In this document: positions 8,239-19,085 of the stretch, one piece after another | How the letters are laid out: every line of letters begins with the position of its first letter | Position numbering within the stretch: position 1 is the first letter of the stretch | Assembly: GCA_024571205.1 (NCBI GenBank) | Contig: GCA_024571205.1_4523.1 | DNA length: 64,000 nt | Source of the DNA: a phage | Reading direction: 5' to 3' (one strand) | Made by a program: the position numbers and the translations under genes | Notes under the pieces: model-generated | Database searches by the model: none | What the model saw: the letters and a program-made list of their open reading frames with translations, nothing else | Told to the model about the DNA's origin: nothing

Positions 8239-8487
8239 ATGGAATTATTAGTAGTTAGTTCAGTAGCAGTTTTGATCGCAGGTATCGGTTCAATTATCAT
8301 TTACATGTTGCCTTGGGTTATCGCACTTATTCGTGGCACCAAAAGCACAACAGCAATCTTCTTCGTATCCTTACTCTTTAACTGGACGATGATTGGATGG
8401 ATTGGAACTTTAATTTGGTCTATCGCAGCAGAAAAGAAATCTGCCCAACAGACACAACAAGTAATTATTATTCGCGAAAAAGAATAA
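8239..8487 (+). CDS. small two-pass membrane protein, superinfection-immunity (Imm)-like
   Basis: 82 aa, two hydrophobic helices; motif YMLPWVIALIRG..IFFVSLLFNWTMIGWIGTLIWS resembles the Imm-type superinfection immunity family pattern as I recall it. Confidence 0.55.
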   Translation: MELLVVSSVAVLIAGIGSIIIYMLPWVIALIRGTKSTTAIFFVSLLFNWTMIGWIGTLIWSIAAEKKSAQQTQQVIIIREKE

Positions 8488-10388: not shown

Positions 10389-11411
10389 ATGGCTGAATGG
10401 ATAGATAATGAATTTGCTTATCGTGCGTTTTCTCACCTACCTCGTTTTAGACAAATCAATAATTCAAGCACATTTAAATTAACGTTTCGTTGTCCAGTTT
10501 GTGGCGACTCTCAGACAGATGCAATGAAAGCCCGCGGATGGTATTATGGCGGTACTCCAGGTAATGTGCATTGCTATAACTGTCAATATCATAATACGAT
10601 TTCCGGATACTTAAAAGAGTATGACGAAGAGCTTTATCGTGAATATCTAATGGAAGTTCGTAAAGAAAAAGCTAGAATGGAACCAAAGATTGAAAAGGTT
10701 CCTGAACATAAACCAGAACCGGAGAAAAAGACTATAAATTCTTTGCCGTCTTGTTCTCGTCTGGACAAGTTGCCTGAAGAGCATCCTATTGTGAAATATG
10801 TTAAGTCTCGGTGTATTCCTAAAGAATCGTGGAACAGATTATGGTTCACATTAGAATGGCCTAAATTGGTCAACAAGATTCAACCAGGCACGTATAAGAA
10901 AGAGATTCCAGAACCGCGTTTAGTGATTCCTATTTTTAATAAAGACGGGAAGGCTGAGTCATTTCAAGGACGTGCACTTCGCAAAGATGCTCCTCAGAAA
11001 TATATAACTATTAAAGCGTTTGAGTCTGCAACAAAAATTTATGGTGTTGAACGTGTTAAGGAAGGAGACGTCTGGGTAATGGAAGGCCCTATTGATAGTT
11101 TATTCATACCCAATGCAATCGCTATTACAGGCGGTTCAATAGATTTAGATGTGGTACCATTTAAAGAACGTCGGGTATGGGTGATGGATAATGAACCTAG
11201 GCATCCGGATACTATAGCTCGTATGAAGCGATTAGTAGATGCAGGCGAACGTGTTATGTTCTGGGACCGAGCTCCATGGAGTTCAAAGGATGTGAATGAT
11301 ATGGTAATGAAAGAAAATGCAACACCACAAGAAATTTTAGAATATATGAAACAGAATATTTCAAGTGGGTTGCATGCTAAAATGAGATTATCTCGTTATT
11401 CGAAGATTTAA
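10389..11411 (+). CDS. 61: gp61 DNA primase
   Basis: N-terminal zinc ribbon CPVCGDS..CYNC and TOPRIM-like C-terminal part; strong match to recalled T4 gp61. Confidence 0.9.
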   Translation: MAEWIDNEFAYRAFSHLPRFRQINNSSTFKLTFRCPVCGDSQTDAMKARGWYYGGTPGNVHCYNCQYHNTISGYLKEYDEELYREYLMEVRKEKARMEPKIEKVPEHKPEPEKKTINSLPSCSRLDKLPEEHPIVKYVKSRCIPKESWNRLWFTLEWPKLVNKIQPGTYKKEIPEPRLVIPIFNKDGKAESFQGRALRKDAPQKYITIKAFESATKIYGVERVKEGDVWVMEGPIDSLFIPNAIAITGGSIDLDVVPFKERRVWVMDNEPRHPDTIARMKRLVDAGERVMFWDRAPWSSKDVNDMVMKENATPQEILEYMKQNISSGLHAKMRLSRYSKI

Positions 11412-11605
11412 ACAAGCCCTATAATAGCAAAGGCCAAATCAACTACAGTATCCAATGGAACAGAAGGAACTATAATACCATGGGCAACTAACAATGGTGC
11501 AATCCCGAAGTTCCATGAAATAATGCCACCTACAACTATTGCGGCGATAGCAGTTTTCTTTTTATTGCCTTTAATAGCGTTGATTAACGATGGAAGTTTA
11601 AACAT
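11408..11605 (-). CDS. small hydrophobic membrane protein, 65 aa, convergent with gene 61
   Basis: Minus-strand ORF with strong RBS (taAGGAGatatt-ATG); two hydrophobic segments; LPSLINAIKGNKKK motif loosely Imm-like. Confidence 0.5.
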   Translation of the reverse strand: MFKLPSLINAIKGNKKKTAIAAIVVGGIISWNFGIAPLLVAHGIIVPSVPLDTVVDLAFAIIGLV

Positions 11606-11693
11606 AATATCTCCTTAGTTACCTATTATTTATTACGCTTTATAAAATTAATGTTAGAATTAACTCTCTTATACTGAATTGAAAGGAAAAATA

Positions 11694-12215
11694 ATGGCGC
11701 ACTTTAATGAATGTTCACAACTTATTTCTGGTGTTGATAAAGCAGAAGAAGCTTATTTTAATGCTCTGATTCACGAAGATAAAGACCCACTGCAGGTAAT
11801 GCTTGATATGCAGAAATCTTTACAGGTTCGTCTGGCAAATGACAAGCCTGAACATAACAAACATCCTGATGAATTGGCTACTGCTGGTGATGTTGTTGAT
11901 TGGCTGCGTAATCAGAAAGATTATATTGATGATGAATTCCGTGAACTGCTGACTTCACTTGGTGGTATGAGCAATGGTGAAAAAGCCGCTAGCAGTGTAT
12001 GGAAGCCATGGAAAGCACAACATGCTGAATATCGAAATCGTCGTATCGATGAACTGTCTCCTGAAGACCAGCTTGAAATTAAATTTGAAATGATTGATAT
12101 TCTGCATTTCGTTCTAAATATGTTCCAAGGTCTTGGTCTTTCTGCTGAAGAAATCTTTAAACTTTACTACTTGAAAAACCAACACAACTTTGAACGTCAG
12201 GATAATGGTTACTAA
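11694..12215 (+). CDS. 56: gp56 dCTPase/dUTPase (dCTP pyrophosphatase)
   Basis: MAHFNEC start after RBS AGGAAA; MazG-like motifs; matches recalled T4 gp56. Confidence 0.85.
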   Translation: MAHFNECSQLISGVDKAEEAYFNALIHEDKDPLQVMLDMQKSLQVRLANDKPEHNKHPDELATAGDVVDWLRNQKDYIDDEFRELLTSLGGMSNGEKAASSVWKPWKAQHAEYRNRRIDELSPEDQLEIKFEMIDILHFVLNMFQGLGLSAEEIFKLYYLKNQHNFERQDNGY

Positions 12216-12221
12216 TTAAGT

Positions 12222-12229
12222 TATAAATA
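12222..12229 (+). promoter_or_regulatory. late promoter TATAAATA upstream of soc
   Basis: Exact TATAAATA about 30 nt upstream of soc ATG. Confidence 0.5.
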
Positions 12230-12260
12230 CACCTGTAATTAAACAACAAAGGAGTTAATT

Positions 12261-12497
12261 ATGGGTGGTTATGTAAACATCAAAACCTTTACGCATCCTG
12301 CTGGTGAAGGCAAAGAAGTTAAAGGTATGGAAGTTTCTGTTCCGTTTGAGATTTATTCAAACGAACATCGGATTGCAGATTCTCATTATCAGACTTTCCC
12401 GTCTGAAAAAGCTGCTTACACTACTGTGGTGACTGACGCAGCAGATTGGCGTACTAAGAACGCTGCAATGTTTACCCCTACACCAGTAAGTGGTTAA
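12261..12497 (+). CDS. soc: Soc small outer capsid protein
   Basis: 78 aa; YVNIKTF..HYQTFPSEKAAYTTV matches recalled T4 Soc. Confidence 0.8.
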   Translation: MGGYVNIKTFTHPAGEGKEVKGMEVSVPFEIYSNEHRIADSHYQTFPSEKAAYTTVVTDAADWRTKNAAMFTPTPVSG

Positions 12498-12505
12498 ATA
12501 ATTTA

Positions 12506-12531
12506 AGGAATCCTTCGGGATTCCTTTTTTC
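12506..12531 (+). terminator. intrinsic terminator (UUCG tetraloop)
   Basis: AGGAATCCttcgGGATTCCT followed by TTTTTT. Confidence 0.75.
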
Positions 12532-12540
12532 GTTTCTAGA

Positions 12541-12570
12541 GTTTACATCCACTAAAAACTATGTTAAGAT
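12541..12570 (+). promoter_or_regulatory. T4-early-type promoter
   Basis: GTTTAC 12541, 18-nt spacer, taagat; precedes ATG 12599. Confidence 0.55.
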
Positions 12571-12598
12571 ATTCTTACTTACTCAAGAGGAGAACATT

Positions 12599-12826
12599 AT
12601 GTTAAATCGTTGGATTAAACCTAATAACACATTAGGCGCTTTGATTGCACAAGAAGTTTCGTTGAAATACGGACTTGGATATTATGATGACGTAGTCGTA
12701 CACTCATTCATGATGGATGGTGAAGACGTCAAATTTAATGCCGAAATCCGTTGGGATGATGGTGGTGTTCGTTTTGTTCGAGGAACAATTAATGCTTACG
12801 ATACTGAAGAAGTTATTTGCTGTTAA
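12599..12826 (+). CDS. hypothetical protein, 75 aa
   Basis: RBS GAGGAGAA; follows a promoter. Confidence 0.55.
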   Translation: MLNRWIKPNNTLGALIAQEVSLKYGLGYYDDVVVHSFMMDGEDVKFNAEIRWDDGGVRFVRGTINAYDTEEVICC

Positions 12827-12839
12827 ACCAGGCGAAGGT

Positions 12840-13028
12840 ATGATGCCTATTCCTGATACACACGAAAAAAGTTGGGAATACATTGGTGACGGCATGATGG
12901 AAGAAGTTATTCGTCCTAAGTCTGCTTCAAGCTCTTCAAGTTATAATCATTCATACGTATCGTCTTGGCCTGGTGATTCCGGGTCAAGTTATTCTGATTG
13001 TGGTTCAAGCTCAGGGAGCTGCGAATGA
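12840..13028 (+). CDS. hypothetical Ser-rich small protein, 62 aa
   Basis: Start trimmed to ATG 12840 (the track N-extension overlaps the previous gene); C-terminus SASSSSSYNHSYVSS..GSSSGSCE. Confidence 0.45.
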   Translation: MMPIPDTHEKSWEYIGDGMMEEVIRPKSASSSSSYNHSYVSSWPGDSGSSYSDCGSSSGSCE

Positions 13029-13204
13029 ACAAGATAGTTAAATGGTTTAAAAGCTGGGACGATGGTGTCGGTCCAGAAGATTGGTTAGATGTTCTTGAAG
13101 AGAATATGGCTAAAGAATTCCAGAAACATGAAGAAAAGCTCGTCGAAGATGAAGGCGAACGTATTGTAAAACTTTATATGGGTGAACCATCGAGGAAATT
13201 ATAA
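13025..13204 (+). CDS. hypothetical protein, 59 aa
   Basis: ATGA overlap with upstream stop; start MNKIVKWFK. Confidence 0.45.
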   Translation: MNKIVKWFKSWDDGVGPEDWLDVLEENMAKEFQKHEEKLVEDEGERIVKLYMGEPSRKL

Positions 13205-13668: not shown

Positions 13669-13849
13669 TATGGACCTTATGAGTATGTTTGATGAGCCTG
13701 AAGTCAAGGCTCCTAAAGTGCATCATAGTGAACTTGTTGATGAACTAGATAGTATTATACAACGACACGGCTTTAGTTTACCTGTTGAAGCCCTGAAAGA
13801 CCTTGCCTCTTATTATGACGACCCTCCACCATGGAGTCCTTGGAAATGA
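13661..13849 (+). CDS. hypothetical protein, 62 aa
   Basis: Overlaps upstream stop; acidic. Confidence 0.45.
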   Translation: MNNMDLMSMFDEPEVKAPKVHHSELVDELDSIIQRHGFSLPVEALKDLASYYDDPPPWSPWK

Positions 13850-14010
13850 AAGAGAAATTTAAAGAGAAATTCTTACTAGAAATCAAGGAAAAAGACTTTG
13901 AGACATGGTATCGAATGGTGAAAGGGTTAACATTGCTTTTTAAAGCATCGTTATTCATGTTAGAACAACCTGGCCCTGATGGACCTTTAGTAGGAAAGCT
14001 TAAAAAGTAG
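13846..14010 (+). CDS. hypothetical protein, 54 aa
   Basis: ATGA overlap; below the ORF-track cutoff. Confidence 0.4.
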   Translation: MKEKFKEKFLLEIKEKDFETWYRMVKGLTLLFKASLFMLEQPGPDGPLVGKLKK

Positions 14011-16527: not shown

Positions 16528-17837
16528 CATTTGATGATTTGACTGAAGGCCAGAAAAACGCCTTCAACGTTGTTATGAAAGCTATTAAAGAAAAGAAACA
16601 TCACGTAACTATTAACGGGCCTGCTGGTACAGGTAAAACAACCCTTACTAGATTCATCGTTGAAGCCCTTATTTCTGCCGGAGAATCAGGTATTATTTTA
16701 GCAGCCCCTACACATGCTGCTAAAAAGGTTCTAAGCAAACTTGCGGGTCAAGAAGCATCGACTATTCATAGCATTCTTAAAATCAACCCAACTACATACG
16801 AAGAAAACGTATTATTTGAACAGAAAAAGGTTCCAGACTTAGCCTTGTGTCGTGTACTGTTATTTGATGAAGCATCAATGTGTGACCGTTCTCTGTTTAA
16901 AATAATGTTAGCTAGTATCCCTAAATGGTGCACAGTAATTGGAATTGGTGACCGATGCCAGATTCGTCCGGTAGACCCAGGCGAATCCACTGCGTATCTA
17001 AGTCCTTTCTTCACTCACAAAGACTTCGTGCAATGCAACCTTACAGAAGTTAAACGTAGCAATGCACCAATTATTGATGTTGCGACTGATATTCGTAATG
17101 GCAAATGGATTTATGATAAAGTAGTTGATGGGCACGGTGTTCATGGATATACAGACCTTAAATCGTATATGATGAACTATTTTAATGTCGTTAAAACTCC
17201 TGAAGACCTTTTCGAAAATCGAATGATGGCATTCACAAATAAGTCGGTGGACAAGTTAAATTCAATTATTCGCCGAAAACTTCTTGAAACAGAAAAGCCA
17301 TTTATTAAAGACGAAGTCATTGTTCTACAAGAGCCGTTTACCAAGACGTATAAGCTAGATGGCAAAAATATGACCGAAATGCTTTTCAATAACGGGCAAT
17401 TCGTTCGTATTCGAGATGCTGTAGAAACGTCTACATTCGTTAAAGCACGTGGTGTTTCAGGCGAATATATGATACGATACTGGAATCTTACAGTAGAAAC
17501 ATATGGGGATGATGAAGAATACGTCCGCGAGGATATAAAGGTTATTTCTTCCGAAGAAGAGCTTTATAAATTCAATTTGTTTTTGGCTAAGACCGCAGAA
17601 ACATACAAATTCTGGAATAAAGGTGGTAAAGCTCCATGGAGTAAATTCTGGGATGCTAAACGCATGTTCACTAAGGTGAAGGCGCTACCTGTATCAACCT
17701 TCCATAAGGCTCAGGGTATGTCTGTTGACACGGCCTTTGTTTATACACCGTGTATCCATTATGCCGATTCAGAATTAGCTAAACAGCTATTGTATGTCGG
17801 CACAACTCGTGGTCGTTTTGACGTCCATTTTATTTGA
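16524..17837 (+). CDS. dda: Dda SF1 DNA helicase
   Basis: Walker A GPAGTGKTT; 437 aa; strong match to recalled T4 Dda. Confidence 0.9.
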   Translation: MTFDDLTEGQKNAFNVVMKAIKEKKHHVTINGPAGTGKTTLTRFIVEALISAGESGIILAAPTHAAKKVLSKLAGQEASTIHSILKINPTTYEENVLFEQKKVPDLALCRVLLFDEASMCDRSLFKIMLASIPKWCTVIGIGDRCQIRPVDPGESTAYLSPFFTHKDFVQCNLTEVKRSNAPIIDVATDIRNGKWIYDKVVDGHGVHGYTDLKSYMMNYFNVVKTPEDLFENRMMAFTNKSVDKLNSIIRRKLLETEKPFIKDEVIVLQEPFTKTYKLDGKNMTEMLFNNGQFVRIRDAVETSTFVKARGVSGEYMIRYWNLTVETYGDDEEYVREDIKVISSEEELYKFNLFLAKTAETYKFWNKGGKAPWSKFWDAKRMFTKVKALPVSTFHKAQGMSVDTAFVYTPCIHYADSELAKQLLYVGTTRGRFDVHFI

Positions 17838-17846
17838 GAGAAAATT

Positions 17847-18524
17847 ATGAGCACTGATGTTATTATAGACTTTGAAACATTCGGCAATACATCAAAAGCG
17901 GCTGTTATTGACCTTGCGGTTATTGCATATAATTCAGACCCTGAAGTTGTTGAATCATTCGAAGAACTTGTTCAACGAGGTAAGCGAATTAAATTTAATT
18001 TAGCTTCTCAAAAAGGGAAGCGAGTTTTCGCTAAATCCACCATGAAATGGTGGAAAGAACAATCGGCTGAAGCACGTAAAAACTTGGCCCCATCTGAAGA
18101 CGATGTCACTACGCTTGATGGCATTAAAATCTTTTTAGATTATTGTCGAGCTAATAAAGTTGACCAATGGAAATCACAAATGTGGTGCCGTGGTATGAGT
18201 TTTGACTTCCCAATCTTGGTCGATTTGATTCGTGACCTCTATCGTGATGAAGGTGTTCTTGAACCAGATATTGATACTGATAAATTAGAACCGGTTAAAT
18301 TCTGGGCTCAACGCGATATTCGTACGGCAATCGAAGCTTACTCGTTGACGCGAGGATTAAGTATGTGTCCGTTACCAATGGGTACGCTAAAAGGATTCGT
18401 TGCCCATGATAGTGTTCATGATTGTGCTAAAGATATTTTGATGTTAAAATATGCTCAGCGTTATGCGCTTGGCCTTGAAGATGTCCCTGAGAATCCTGAC
18501 CCGTTAAGTGTAAAACAGCGATAA
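17847..18524 (+). CDS. dexA: DexA exonuclease A (DnaQ-like 3'-5' exonuclease)
   Basis: 225 aa; IIDFETFG exonuclease motif I; position after dda. Confidence 0.85.
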   Translation: MSTDVIIDFETFGNTSKAAVIDLAVIAYNSDPEVVESFEELVQRGKRIKFNLASQKGKRVFAKSTMKWWKEQSAEARKNLAPSEDDVTTLDGIKIFLDYCRANKVDQWKSQMWCRGMSFDFPILVDLIRDLYRDEGVLEPDIDTDKLEPVKFWAQRDIRTAIEAYSLTRGLSMCPLPMGTLKGFVAHDSVHDCAKDILMLKYAQRYALGLEDVPENPDPLSVKQR

Positions 18525-18529
18525 AATCA

Positions 18530-18559
18530 GTTTACAACCAAGGATGGTTGGAGTATAAT
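18530..18559 (+). promoter_or_regulatory. T4-early-type promoter
   Basis: GTTTAC 18530, 18-nt spacer, tataat 18554-18559. Confidence 0.6.
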
Positions 18560-18590
18560 CTTTCTATCTTAACCAAACAGGAAAAACATT

Positions 18591-19085
18591 ATGAATATCA
18601 ATACTACGGCTACTTATATCCTGAAAGACGAAAAACAAATCAACTGGTACAGTGCTTCAGTGCGAGCTTATGAAAAGTTTTGCGAAATTTTAGGTGCCAC
18701 TCAAGGTAATAGTTTCACTATTGTTAACTTCATCAAACAAGTTGAAGGCCCTTGGTTATTCTTAGAAATTAAAAATTCATATGGTACAATTTCTACCACC
18801 GCCCTTCCAAGCACCGACTTTGAACTGTTGATTGAAGAAGTAGAACCCGTTAAAGATATCTGTATTGATATGGATATCGCTTGTATGTACGGTACTCTGA
18901 TTAAGCCTATTGAGCCTACCGATTTGTTGTGTAAATATGTTTCAATTCGACGCCCATTCGCTGGTCCAGTAAATGGATGGGTGACTGATCAGTGGATTGA
19001 AGACGGTGTTGAACTTCTGAACGTTGTTCATGCAGGTGATTTTAGTGTAGTTCCACGTAGTGCTGTGGTTAATATCCTTAATTAA
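18591..19085 (+). CDS. hypothetical protein, 164 aa, paralog family member A
   Basis: C-terminal GWVTDQWIEDGVELLNVVHAGDFSVV shared with the next two ORFs. Confidence 0.6.
   Translation: MNINTTATYILKDEKQINWYSASVRAYEKFCEILGATQGNSFTIVNFIKQVEGPWLFLEIKNSYGTISTTALPSTDFELLIEEVEPVKDICIDMDIACMYGTLIKPIEPTDLLCKYVSIRRPFAGPVNGWVTDQWIEDGVELLNVVHAGDFSVVPRSAVVNILN

Follow-up and report, generated by a model that had tools for sequence, protein, structure and literature searches.

T4-type phages have a holin, T, and T4 also has Imm, which is the product of an early gene and is generally described with two transmembrane helices. The closest relatives of the gene considered here are RB69ORF029w of phage RB69 (NP_861719.1) and RB32ORF030w, whose record carries the note 'similar to RB69ORF029w'. 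No paper naming RB69ORF029w or ORF030w was found in the literature, and the locus is not mentioned in the HIDEN-SEQ preprint. The gene lies in 64,000 nucleotides of phage DNA (NCBI GenBank assembly GCA_024571205.1, contig GCA_024571205.1_4523.1; this whole stretch is called the window), where an open reading frame (ORF) of 65 codons occupies 11408-11605 on the - strand, between the genes for primase (gene 61) and dCTPase (gene 56). An initial annotation of the window had taken it for a genuinely expressed membrane protein with an Imm-type pattern, such as an exclusion or holin-modulating factor, or, alternatively, for a spurious ORF. Genes of this kind are already known: they have been annotated as coding for hypothetical proteins since the RB69 genome, and they define a PHROG. 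What is new here is the division of the family into two paralogous subfamilies (A and B), a few non-T4 metagenomic members, and a member in the T4 reference genome that is unannotated. Leaving the cellular role of the product aside, we consider it likely that this is a real gene of late type coding for a membrane microprotein.

The Reading Frame and Its Conservation

Sequence identity places the window in Mosigvirus, among the RB69-like genomes: over the 2.1 kb that surround the ORF, identity is 100% to Escherichia phages CAU_ECP01 and PECP20 and 97-99% to many genomes of Mosigvirus. The ORF begins with an ATG at 11605-11603, and its product is MFKLPSLINAIKGNKKKTAIAAIVVGGIISWNFGIAPLLVAHGIIVPSVPLDTVVDLAFAIIGLV. 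A Shine-Dalgarno (SD) sequence, AAGGAG, is present 5 nt upstream of the ATG (11611-11616, - strand), and an (A)GGAGG-type SD is found at the matching place in all T4-like homologs. The ORF converges with gene 61 (10389-11411, + strand), and 11408-11411 is common to both. The overlapping stop codons lie in a palindrome, TTTAAA (11407-11412), the TAA of the ORF being the complement of 11410-11408 and that of gene 61 being 11409-11411. All annotated neighbours are on the + strand. The initial annotation was thus correct in describing a hydrophobic - strand ORF with a strong ribosome-binding site and an ATG, in its convergence with gene 61 and 4-nt overlap, and in its + strand surroundings. T4, RB32, RB69, Klebsiella phages and the L027 lineage share this 4-nt overlap of stop codons. 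Three other lineages (L025, L031 and L033) have a gap of 7-18 nt instead, indicating that the overlap reflects genome compaction and is not a functional requirement.

The length of the ORF is not in itself evidence for a gene, because antisense ORFs of 79-86 aa arise nearby by chance, inside + strand genes. What sets it apart from chance ORFs is that it fills a gap, its codon usage, its own SD and promoter-like element, and the conservation of its protein across genera. The gap, 282 nt between genes 61 and 56 and otherwise non-coding, is the largest in the annotated 8-kb neighbourhood. Under a codon model for which 33 long window ORFs served as the training set (average of the training genes 0.33 bits/codon, minimum 0.06), the ORF frame scores +0.19 bits/codon and the other five frames -0.11 to -1.40. 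One antisense (+) frame of 11408-11605 is likewise without stops in the copies of Mosigvirus and Tequatrovirus, whereas in other lineages it is interrupted. Given its negative coding potential (-0.11 bits/codon), this frame is a side effect of the codon pattern rather than a further gene.

The entire protein aligns with the profile of phrog_2024, a PHROG listed as of 'unknown function', at E 1.9e-27 and 95.8 bits, its residues 1-65 matching all 65 profile positions. Pfam and NCBIfam scans of the protein returned no family, and PADLOC gave noise-level matches to GajB only, by one family member each. With tblastn, the protein was found in 693 phage records, 686 of them at a coverage of at least 80% in one uninterrupted piece. 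Identity to the window protein is about 54% for the Tequatrovirus copies and 45-49% for those of Gaprivervirus. An exhaustive hidden Markov model (HMM) search of 1.84 billion representative proteins gave 16 matches at E<0.001. The placement between genes 61 and 56, convergent with the primase gene, recurs in RB69, RB32, T4, Gaprivervirus and Klebsiella T4-like phages. Even in metagenomic lineages where identity falls to 25-30% (P0109, P0113), the gene keeps this opposite-strand position between 56 and 61, convergent with the primase gene.

Selection acts on the frame. In unsaturated pairs, the Nei-Gojobori ratio of nonsynonymous to synonymous substitution rates (dN/dS) is 0.09-0.17: for the window lineage it is 0.094 against L011 (Sd 12, Nd 4) and 0.107 against ESCO47, for T4 against L014 it is 0.12, and for Potts1 against Marfa 0.089. 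Substitutions are distributed over codon positions 1:2:3 as 49:10:123 (chi-square p about 3e-24), and the frame of the ORF is the sole frame without stops in 16 of the 16 lineages examined. The initial annotation had named the same intergenic region in related phages, and conservation of the frame, as checks on the ORF; the region holds homologs in several T4-like genera, and the frame is conserved. On this comparative evidence, the ORF is a genuine, conserved protein-coding gene and the ortholog of RB69ORF029w. Of the claim of a genuinely expressed membrane protein, the part concerning a real gene for a small membrane protein is upheld by selection, frame and synteny; for expression, the support is comparative in kind.

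The names given to the gene by depositors vary. The ORF is a hypothetical protein in CAU_ECP01 (XLQ29135.1) and likewise in OLB35. Other labels are inconsistent and unsupported: one homolog, in phage OE5505, is called 'Holin' (P0070), and several records of Klebsiella and Escherichia phages give the name 'DNA packaging ATPase' to B-type copies of 66 aa (P0096, Klebsiella phage SAKp28; H147, H155 and H158). The RefSeq annotations of T4 and ATK47 omit the gene. In T4 (NC_000866.4), dam (16846-17625) and gene 61 (17935-18963) are separated by 310 nt for which no feature is given. Here, at 17738-17938 on the + strand (L004, 3239-3439), lies a 66-aa ortholog; its SD is AAGGAGG, and its stop overlaps that of gene 61 by 4 nt. 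A non-coding RNA reading of the locus was rejected on an Rfam scan of 10800-12600 at E<=1, which returned only a noise miRNA match elsewhere.

Subfamilies and Distribution

Profile searches divide the family into two. The A type, M-x-KL..LI.AIKGNKK, is that of Mosigvirus, Tequatrovirus and Gaprivervirus, and the B type, MGTLFYQIWKL..KKD, that of Klebsiella, Enterobacter and Dhakavirus-type phages. Together with more distant members, the B type is found in T4-like phages of Klebsiella, Enterobacter, Citrobacter, Salmonella, Edwardsiella, Kosakonia and Pectobacterium. Some phages carry both types as tandem paralogs, each with its own SD. In Gaprivervirus, A is followed by B (L008, 2501-2698 and 2707-2907); in ESCO47-like phages, B is followed by A with an 8-nt overlap (L031/L032, 2805-3008 and 3001-3198). 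In L018 the B copy lacks part of its N-terminus, and in CJ20 (L007) there is no B copy, a pattern suggesting that the copies are redundant or subject to turnover.

A gp61-type primase is encoded in 2,387 phage records, among them those of cyanophages and of phages of Vibrio, Aeromonas and Acinetobacter. Detection of the small gene was limited to T4-like phages of Enterobacterales and two or three metagenomic non-T4 contigs. The restriction to Enterobacterales suggests an accessory role specific to the host envelope, rather than a core virion or replication function. Two non-T4 members are clear (P0114 and P0117; phrog_2024 E about 6e-11) and lie on temperate-phage-like metagenomic contigs (L028, 2553-3210; L029, 1669-3213). 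Their neighbours are homing-endonuclease-type genes (Endonuclease_7; SegE-like GIY-YIG) and tail or host-specificity genes, which do not indicate a function. P0118, a weak match to the family, adjoins a RelA_SpoT gene. Used as tblastn queries, the non-T4 members found, among cultured phages, T4-like phages only. A scan of GTDB species genomes gave two marginal matches, in metagenome-assembled genomes of Acidimicrobiaceae, which are probably due to chance.

A Late-Type Promoter Element

In T4, 32 of 50 listed late promoters have the perfect element TATAAATA, and the commonest variant, with A at -13, accounts for 9 of the 50 (PMC2988020, Geiduschek and Kassavetis). Late transcripts of T4 can be of either polarity (PMC2988020), and a T4 differential RNA sequencing (dRNA-seq) preprint gives 150 transcription start sites, 22 of which are antisense (bioRxiv 10.1101/2024.04.04.588121).

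The window gene has a putative T4-type late-promoter -10 element, AATAAATA, with A at -13, at 11627-11634 on the - strand, 21 nt before the ATG, identified by its sequence and its conservation. By motif, this late-type element is the only promoter element evident upstream of the ORF, and its orientation is opposite to that of the early genes. Whether the unit has one gene or two, a NATAAATA octamer precedes the ATG of its first gene by 14-22 nt in nearly all T4-like lineages. The element is AATAAATA in the window and in RB32-type phages, GATAAATA in T4 (21 nt upstream), CATAAATA in Gaprivervirus and ESCO47-like phages, and a perfect TATAAATA in the Klebsiella-phage lineages. The sequence flanking the element is diverged and otherwise unalignable. 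The NATAAATA motif is absent from the downstream paralog of the tandem pairs and from the non-T4 members. The gene is probably a late monocistronic unit dependent on gp55, gp33 and gp45, with a leader of ~16 nt and a predicted start near 11621. Its antisense orientation would be explained by its being a late-type transcription unit with a conserved NATAAATA element. The - strand beyond the stop of the ORF (10800-11408) gave no sign of an intrinsic terminator, so the transcript may run antisense into gene 61. Such a run could have a secondary regulatory effect, which cannot account for the constraint on the protein.

On the + strand, a middle-promoter-like element for gene 56 is found at 11636-11660: a MotA-box-like CGCTTTA, a 12-nt spacer and TAGAAT. 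It directly abuts the late -10 element of the - strand (11627-11634), and in RB32-type phages the late element is inside the spacer of the middle promoter, TTGCTTTA-11 nt-TATAAT. The elements for gene 56 and for the - strand gene are back-to-back divergent promoters of different temporal classes. T4 has oriA in the corresponding neighbourhood (annotated at 16763).

The Predicted Protein

The protein has a grand average of hydropathy (GRAVY) of 1.24, and its hydropathy profile agrees with an AlphaFold2 model made with the family alignment (mean predicted local distance difference test score, pLDDT, 83). The model has helices at 4-11, 15-41 and 51-62, with a basic cluster between the first two and a Gly/Pro-containing loop at 42-50. 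In 117 members, the segment before the hydrophobic helix has a mean net charge of +3.6 (4.6 Lys+Arg) and the segment after it -1.5 (0.16 Lys+Arg), and by the positive-inside rule an N-in/C-out orientation is favoured in 113 of the 117. The protein is therefore predicted to span the membrane once, with the N-terminus inside and the C-terminus outside, insertion and topology alike following from the model and the charges.

Conservation is concentrated at the end of the transmembrane helix. A block, WN-x4-P-x5-G-x3-P-x4-(D/E), spans the outer half of this helix together with the turn next to the membrane, and its signature, W-N-x4-P-x5-G-x3-P, is present in the window protein. In alignment A2, W31, N32, P37, G43 and P47 are invariant; in the wider alignment A3, P37 is invariant, and W31 and N32 are conserved in at least 90%. 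A conserved Asn in a transmembrane helix is a classic driver of helix-helix association, and on this ground we propose binding to another membrane protein, or oligomerisation. A sequence-profile search of the PDB found nothing, and Foldseek against the PDB and BFVD found only the family's own members.

The resemblance to Imm that the initial annotation had seen does not extend beyond a short stretch. Pairwise BLASTP to the Imm of the window (8239-8487) aligns 9 of 20 residues with Imm residues 21-40 (E 3e-4). These residues are confined to the N-terminal tail of the Mosigvirus version and are not conserved in the T4, Gaprivervirus and B-type homologs. The Imm family, PF14373, is matched by the window Imm itself at 1.4e-15; the window protein does not match it at E<=1, nor do the T4 and B-type homologs or the 19 members of A3 at E<=10. 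The family profile compared with Imm by hhalign has a probability of 0.09%, and hmmsearch of all window ORFs with this profile did not find the Imm ORF. Homology to Imm was rejected on these grounds.

With 65 aa and one transmembrane helix (15-41 in the model), the window protein is a small membrane protein as a holin would be. A charged hydrophilic C-terminus of the holin type is lacking, the C-terminal 24 residues being hydrophobic to weakly acidic. The neighbourhood is not that of a lysis cassette either (the neighbours are primase, dCTPase and soc), which is a weak test as the lysis genes of T4 are scattered. PF11351 (GTA_holin_3TM) is not matched by the window protein, and the family has one transmembrane helix versus three. 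Three of the 19 A3 members (P0107, P0113 and P0118) match PF11351 at about positions 66-117 of 123 with 13.6-15.3 bits (E 0.03-0.1), compared with a gathering threshold of 24.8 bits; these matches could be due to remote homology or to an artefact of transmembrane composition. The collection papers that cite phage OE5505 gave no basis for its 'Holin' label.

Proposed Function and Alternatives

In the scheme that we rank first, the gene would be a one-gene transcription unit opposite the early genes, read from the late promoter at 11627-11634, which would be recognised by RNA polymerase carrying gp55, with gp33 and gp45. Translation from the strong SD site would give a 65-residue single-pass inner-membrane protein. 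Its short basic N-terminal tail, comprising an amphipathic helix and KGNKKK, would be cytoplasmic; one transmembrane helix (about 15-41) would bear W31-N32...P37...G43...P47; and the C-terminal segment, about 24 residues that include a short helix with an acidic cap, would be periplasmic. The Asn-containing transmembrane segment would bind the membrane-embedded part of a larger protein, as in other bitopic microproteins. This binding would tune a late envelope event in phages of Enterobacterales, most plausibly lysis timing or lysis inhibition (the holin T/RI/RIII circuit). It is the predicted late timing and membrane location together that suggest late envelope events. Although it heads the ranking of modes of action, binding through the transmembrane segment to tune lysis timing or lysis inhibition is offered as a tentative proposal. 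The holin-modulating role that the initial annotation had suggested may be possible, and a lysis-related one is a weak lead. More speculatively still, this late inner-membrane microprotein, omitted from the T4 list, might be an unrecognised, Enterobacterales-specific component of T-even lysis timing, lysis inhibition or envelope control that binds holin T or a host membrane protein.

Several points weigh against this proposal. The gene is not adjacent to t, e, rI, rIII or the spanin genes, and its product is without the charged C-terminal tail typical of holins. The hints of lysis are weak, consisting of one depositor's 'Holin' label and three sub-threshold PF11351 matches. The topology is a prediction from the model and the charge rule. 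Late transcription rests on a 7-of-8 motif match and the conservation of the motif, and one T4-like lineage, L033, is an exception in which no ATAAATA heptamer is seen upstream. Frameshifts are present in T4_ev240 (LR597657.1, L050 about 1445-1450), as a 1-nt deletion in the A6 run encoding the KGNKKR cluster, and in ERS-1 (PP337211.1, L009; an UNVERIFIED record), near the 3' end of the gene. If they are not sequencing errors (homopolymer errors in particular), the gene may be dispensable in the laboratory.

Among the rivals, two deny the protein a role. A spurious ORF in an AT-rich intergenic spacer would be in keeping with the similar or longer chance antisense ORFs that are common in the window and with the omission of the gene from two RefSeq annotations. 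This alternative, which the initial annotation had left standing, is rejected because of the purifying selection, the frame kept open across lineages and the conserved synteny; coding potential and the SD and promoter signals are also against it, and we regard it as practically refuted. A late antisense transcript that silences primase mRNA, with the peptide incidental, would fit the convergence with gene 61 and the lack of a detected - strand terminator within 10800-11408, and some sites in T4 are known to be transcribed from both strands, though not at the same time (PMC2988020). Yet an RNA would not account for a dN/dS of 0.09-0.17, an amino-acid motif that is invariant at 25% overall identity, a conserved SD and start codon, or duplicated paralogs each with an SD. 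An antisense effect might exist in addition, but it would not explain these protein-level features, and as the sole function it is very unlikely. An Imm-like protein for superinfection immunity or exclusion is suggested by the 9 of 20 residues shared with the window Imm and by both being small membrane proteins. Besides the lack of conservation of these residues and the negative profile comparisons, one transmembrane helix is predicted here instead of the two usual for T4 Imm, and the promoter is of late type whereas T4 imm is early. The predicted late timing speaks against an early exclusion role of this kind, which we consider quite improbable.

The two remaining rivals accept a late membrane protein and differ from our proposal in what it does. 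A small hole-former of the holin or pinholin type, or a dominant-negative holin fragment acting as an antiholin, would be small, membrane-embedded and late, as this protein is predicted to be, and both the 'Holin' label and the PF11351 matches of P0107, P0113 and P0118 lean that way. Those matches are 13-15 bits against a cut-off of 24.8 and do not include the window protein, the label has no experimental basis that we found, the C-terminus is hydrophobic and slightly acidic, and no lysis gene adjoins. Moreover, T4-type phages already carry holin T, which leaves a holin of its own an improbable reading. Modulation of a host inner-membrane protein (a transporter, sensor, protease or membrane-bound defence effector), in the manner of MgrB or AcrZ, is ranked second. 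In its favour, the family is confined to T4-like phages of Enterobacterales, as compared with the many host groups of the gp61-type primases; the conserved part is the transmembrane segment with the juxtamembrane motif; and the cytoplasmic tails are different in the A and B paralogs, which diversification in the recognition of partners would lead one to expect. PADLOC and Pfam give no signal for it, no partner is known, and late timing would be unusual for a counter-defence gene, those of T4 being mostly early. Modulation of a host protein is thus possible though unlikely, and the tuning of lysis through a membrane-embedded partner stays ahead of it.

The comparisons indicate a late monocistronic unit, present in hundreds of Enterobacterales T4-like phages and absent from T4-like phages of other hosts, and this distribution points to a late function specific to the host envelope. 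Should the lysis-tuning proposal hold, a small component of the lysis and lysis-inhibition system has gone unrecognised. The 66-aa ortholog would be missed in T4-based omics and in knock-down screens that depend on the NC_000866.4 annotation. It is a cheap and well-defined knockout target, given that the T4 annotation omits it and that its late-promoter signature is clean.

Neighbouring Features

The + strand gene order of the region is dmd, imm, sp, three hypothetical genes, gene 61, gene 56 (11694-12215) and soc (12261-12497). A perfect TATAAATA lies ahead of soc at 12222-12229. Just after soc, at 12505-12526, there is a perfect 9-bp hairpin, AAGGAATCC-TTCG-GGATTCCTT, followed by a T-run on the + strand. 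It was scored as terminator-like on the - strand as well, and so has the appearance of a terminator for both directions. In T4-like phages, a hot spot of gene insertion lies between 56 and 61, examples being dam and segF in T4 and additional ORFs in Klebsiella phages. OLB35 has an extra ORF of 162 nt between gene 56 and soc (L003, 3010-3171) that is absent from the window, which explains its two-piece megablast match. In CAU_ECP01, two ORFs have implausible names: one of 59 aa (L001, 6282-6461; window about 13670-13850) is called 'molybdenum ABC transporter periplasmic molybdenum-binding protein', and one of 78 aa (L001, 5404-5640; window about 12790-13030) is called 'capsid vertex protein'.

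Comparison with Known Systems

T4 Imm (PF14373) is likewise a small phage inner-membrane protein, with a short local similarity to the Mosigvirus version only. It differs in having no HMM or profile similarity to the family, in its two hydrophobic helices as opposed to one, in its early promoter, and in belonging to a different genomic unit. T4 T and RI and the PF11351 holins are also small, late and membrane-embedded, and the predicted N-in/C-out orientation is that of T. The window family falls below all curated thresholds for phage holins, and lacks their charged C-terminal tail and the lysis-gene neighbourhood. T has a large periplasmic domain that the window protein does not have, and the releasable SAR anchor of RI is argued against here by the basic N-terminal tail. 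As a functional analogy only, the bacterial bitopic microproteins MgrB and AcrZ are similar in being single-pass proteins of 50-70 aa with a conserved transmembrane/juxtamembrane segment that contains a polar residue, here Asn32; no sequence relationship between them and the window protein was detected. The RB69ORF029w/RB32ORF030w family is the same in length (65-66 aa), position, orientation, SD and late-promoter-like element. There is no substantive difference, and the window gene is its ortholog.

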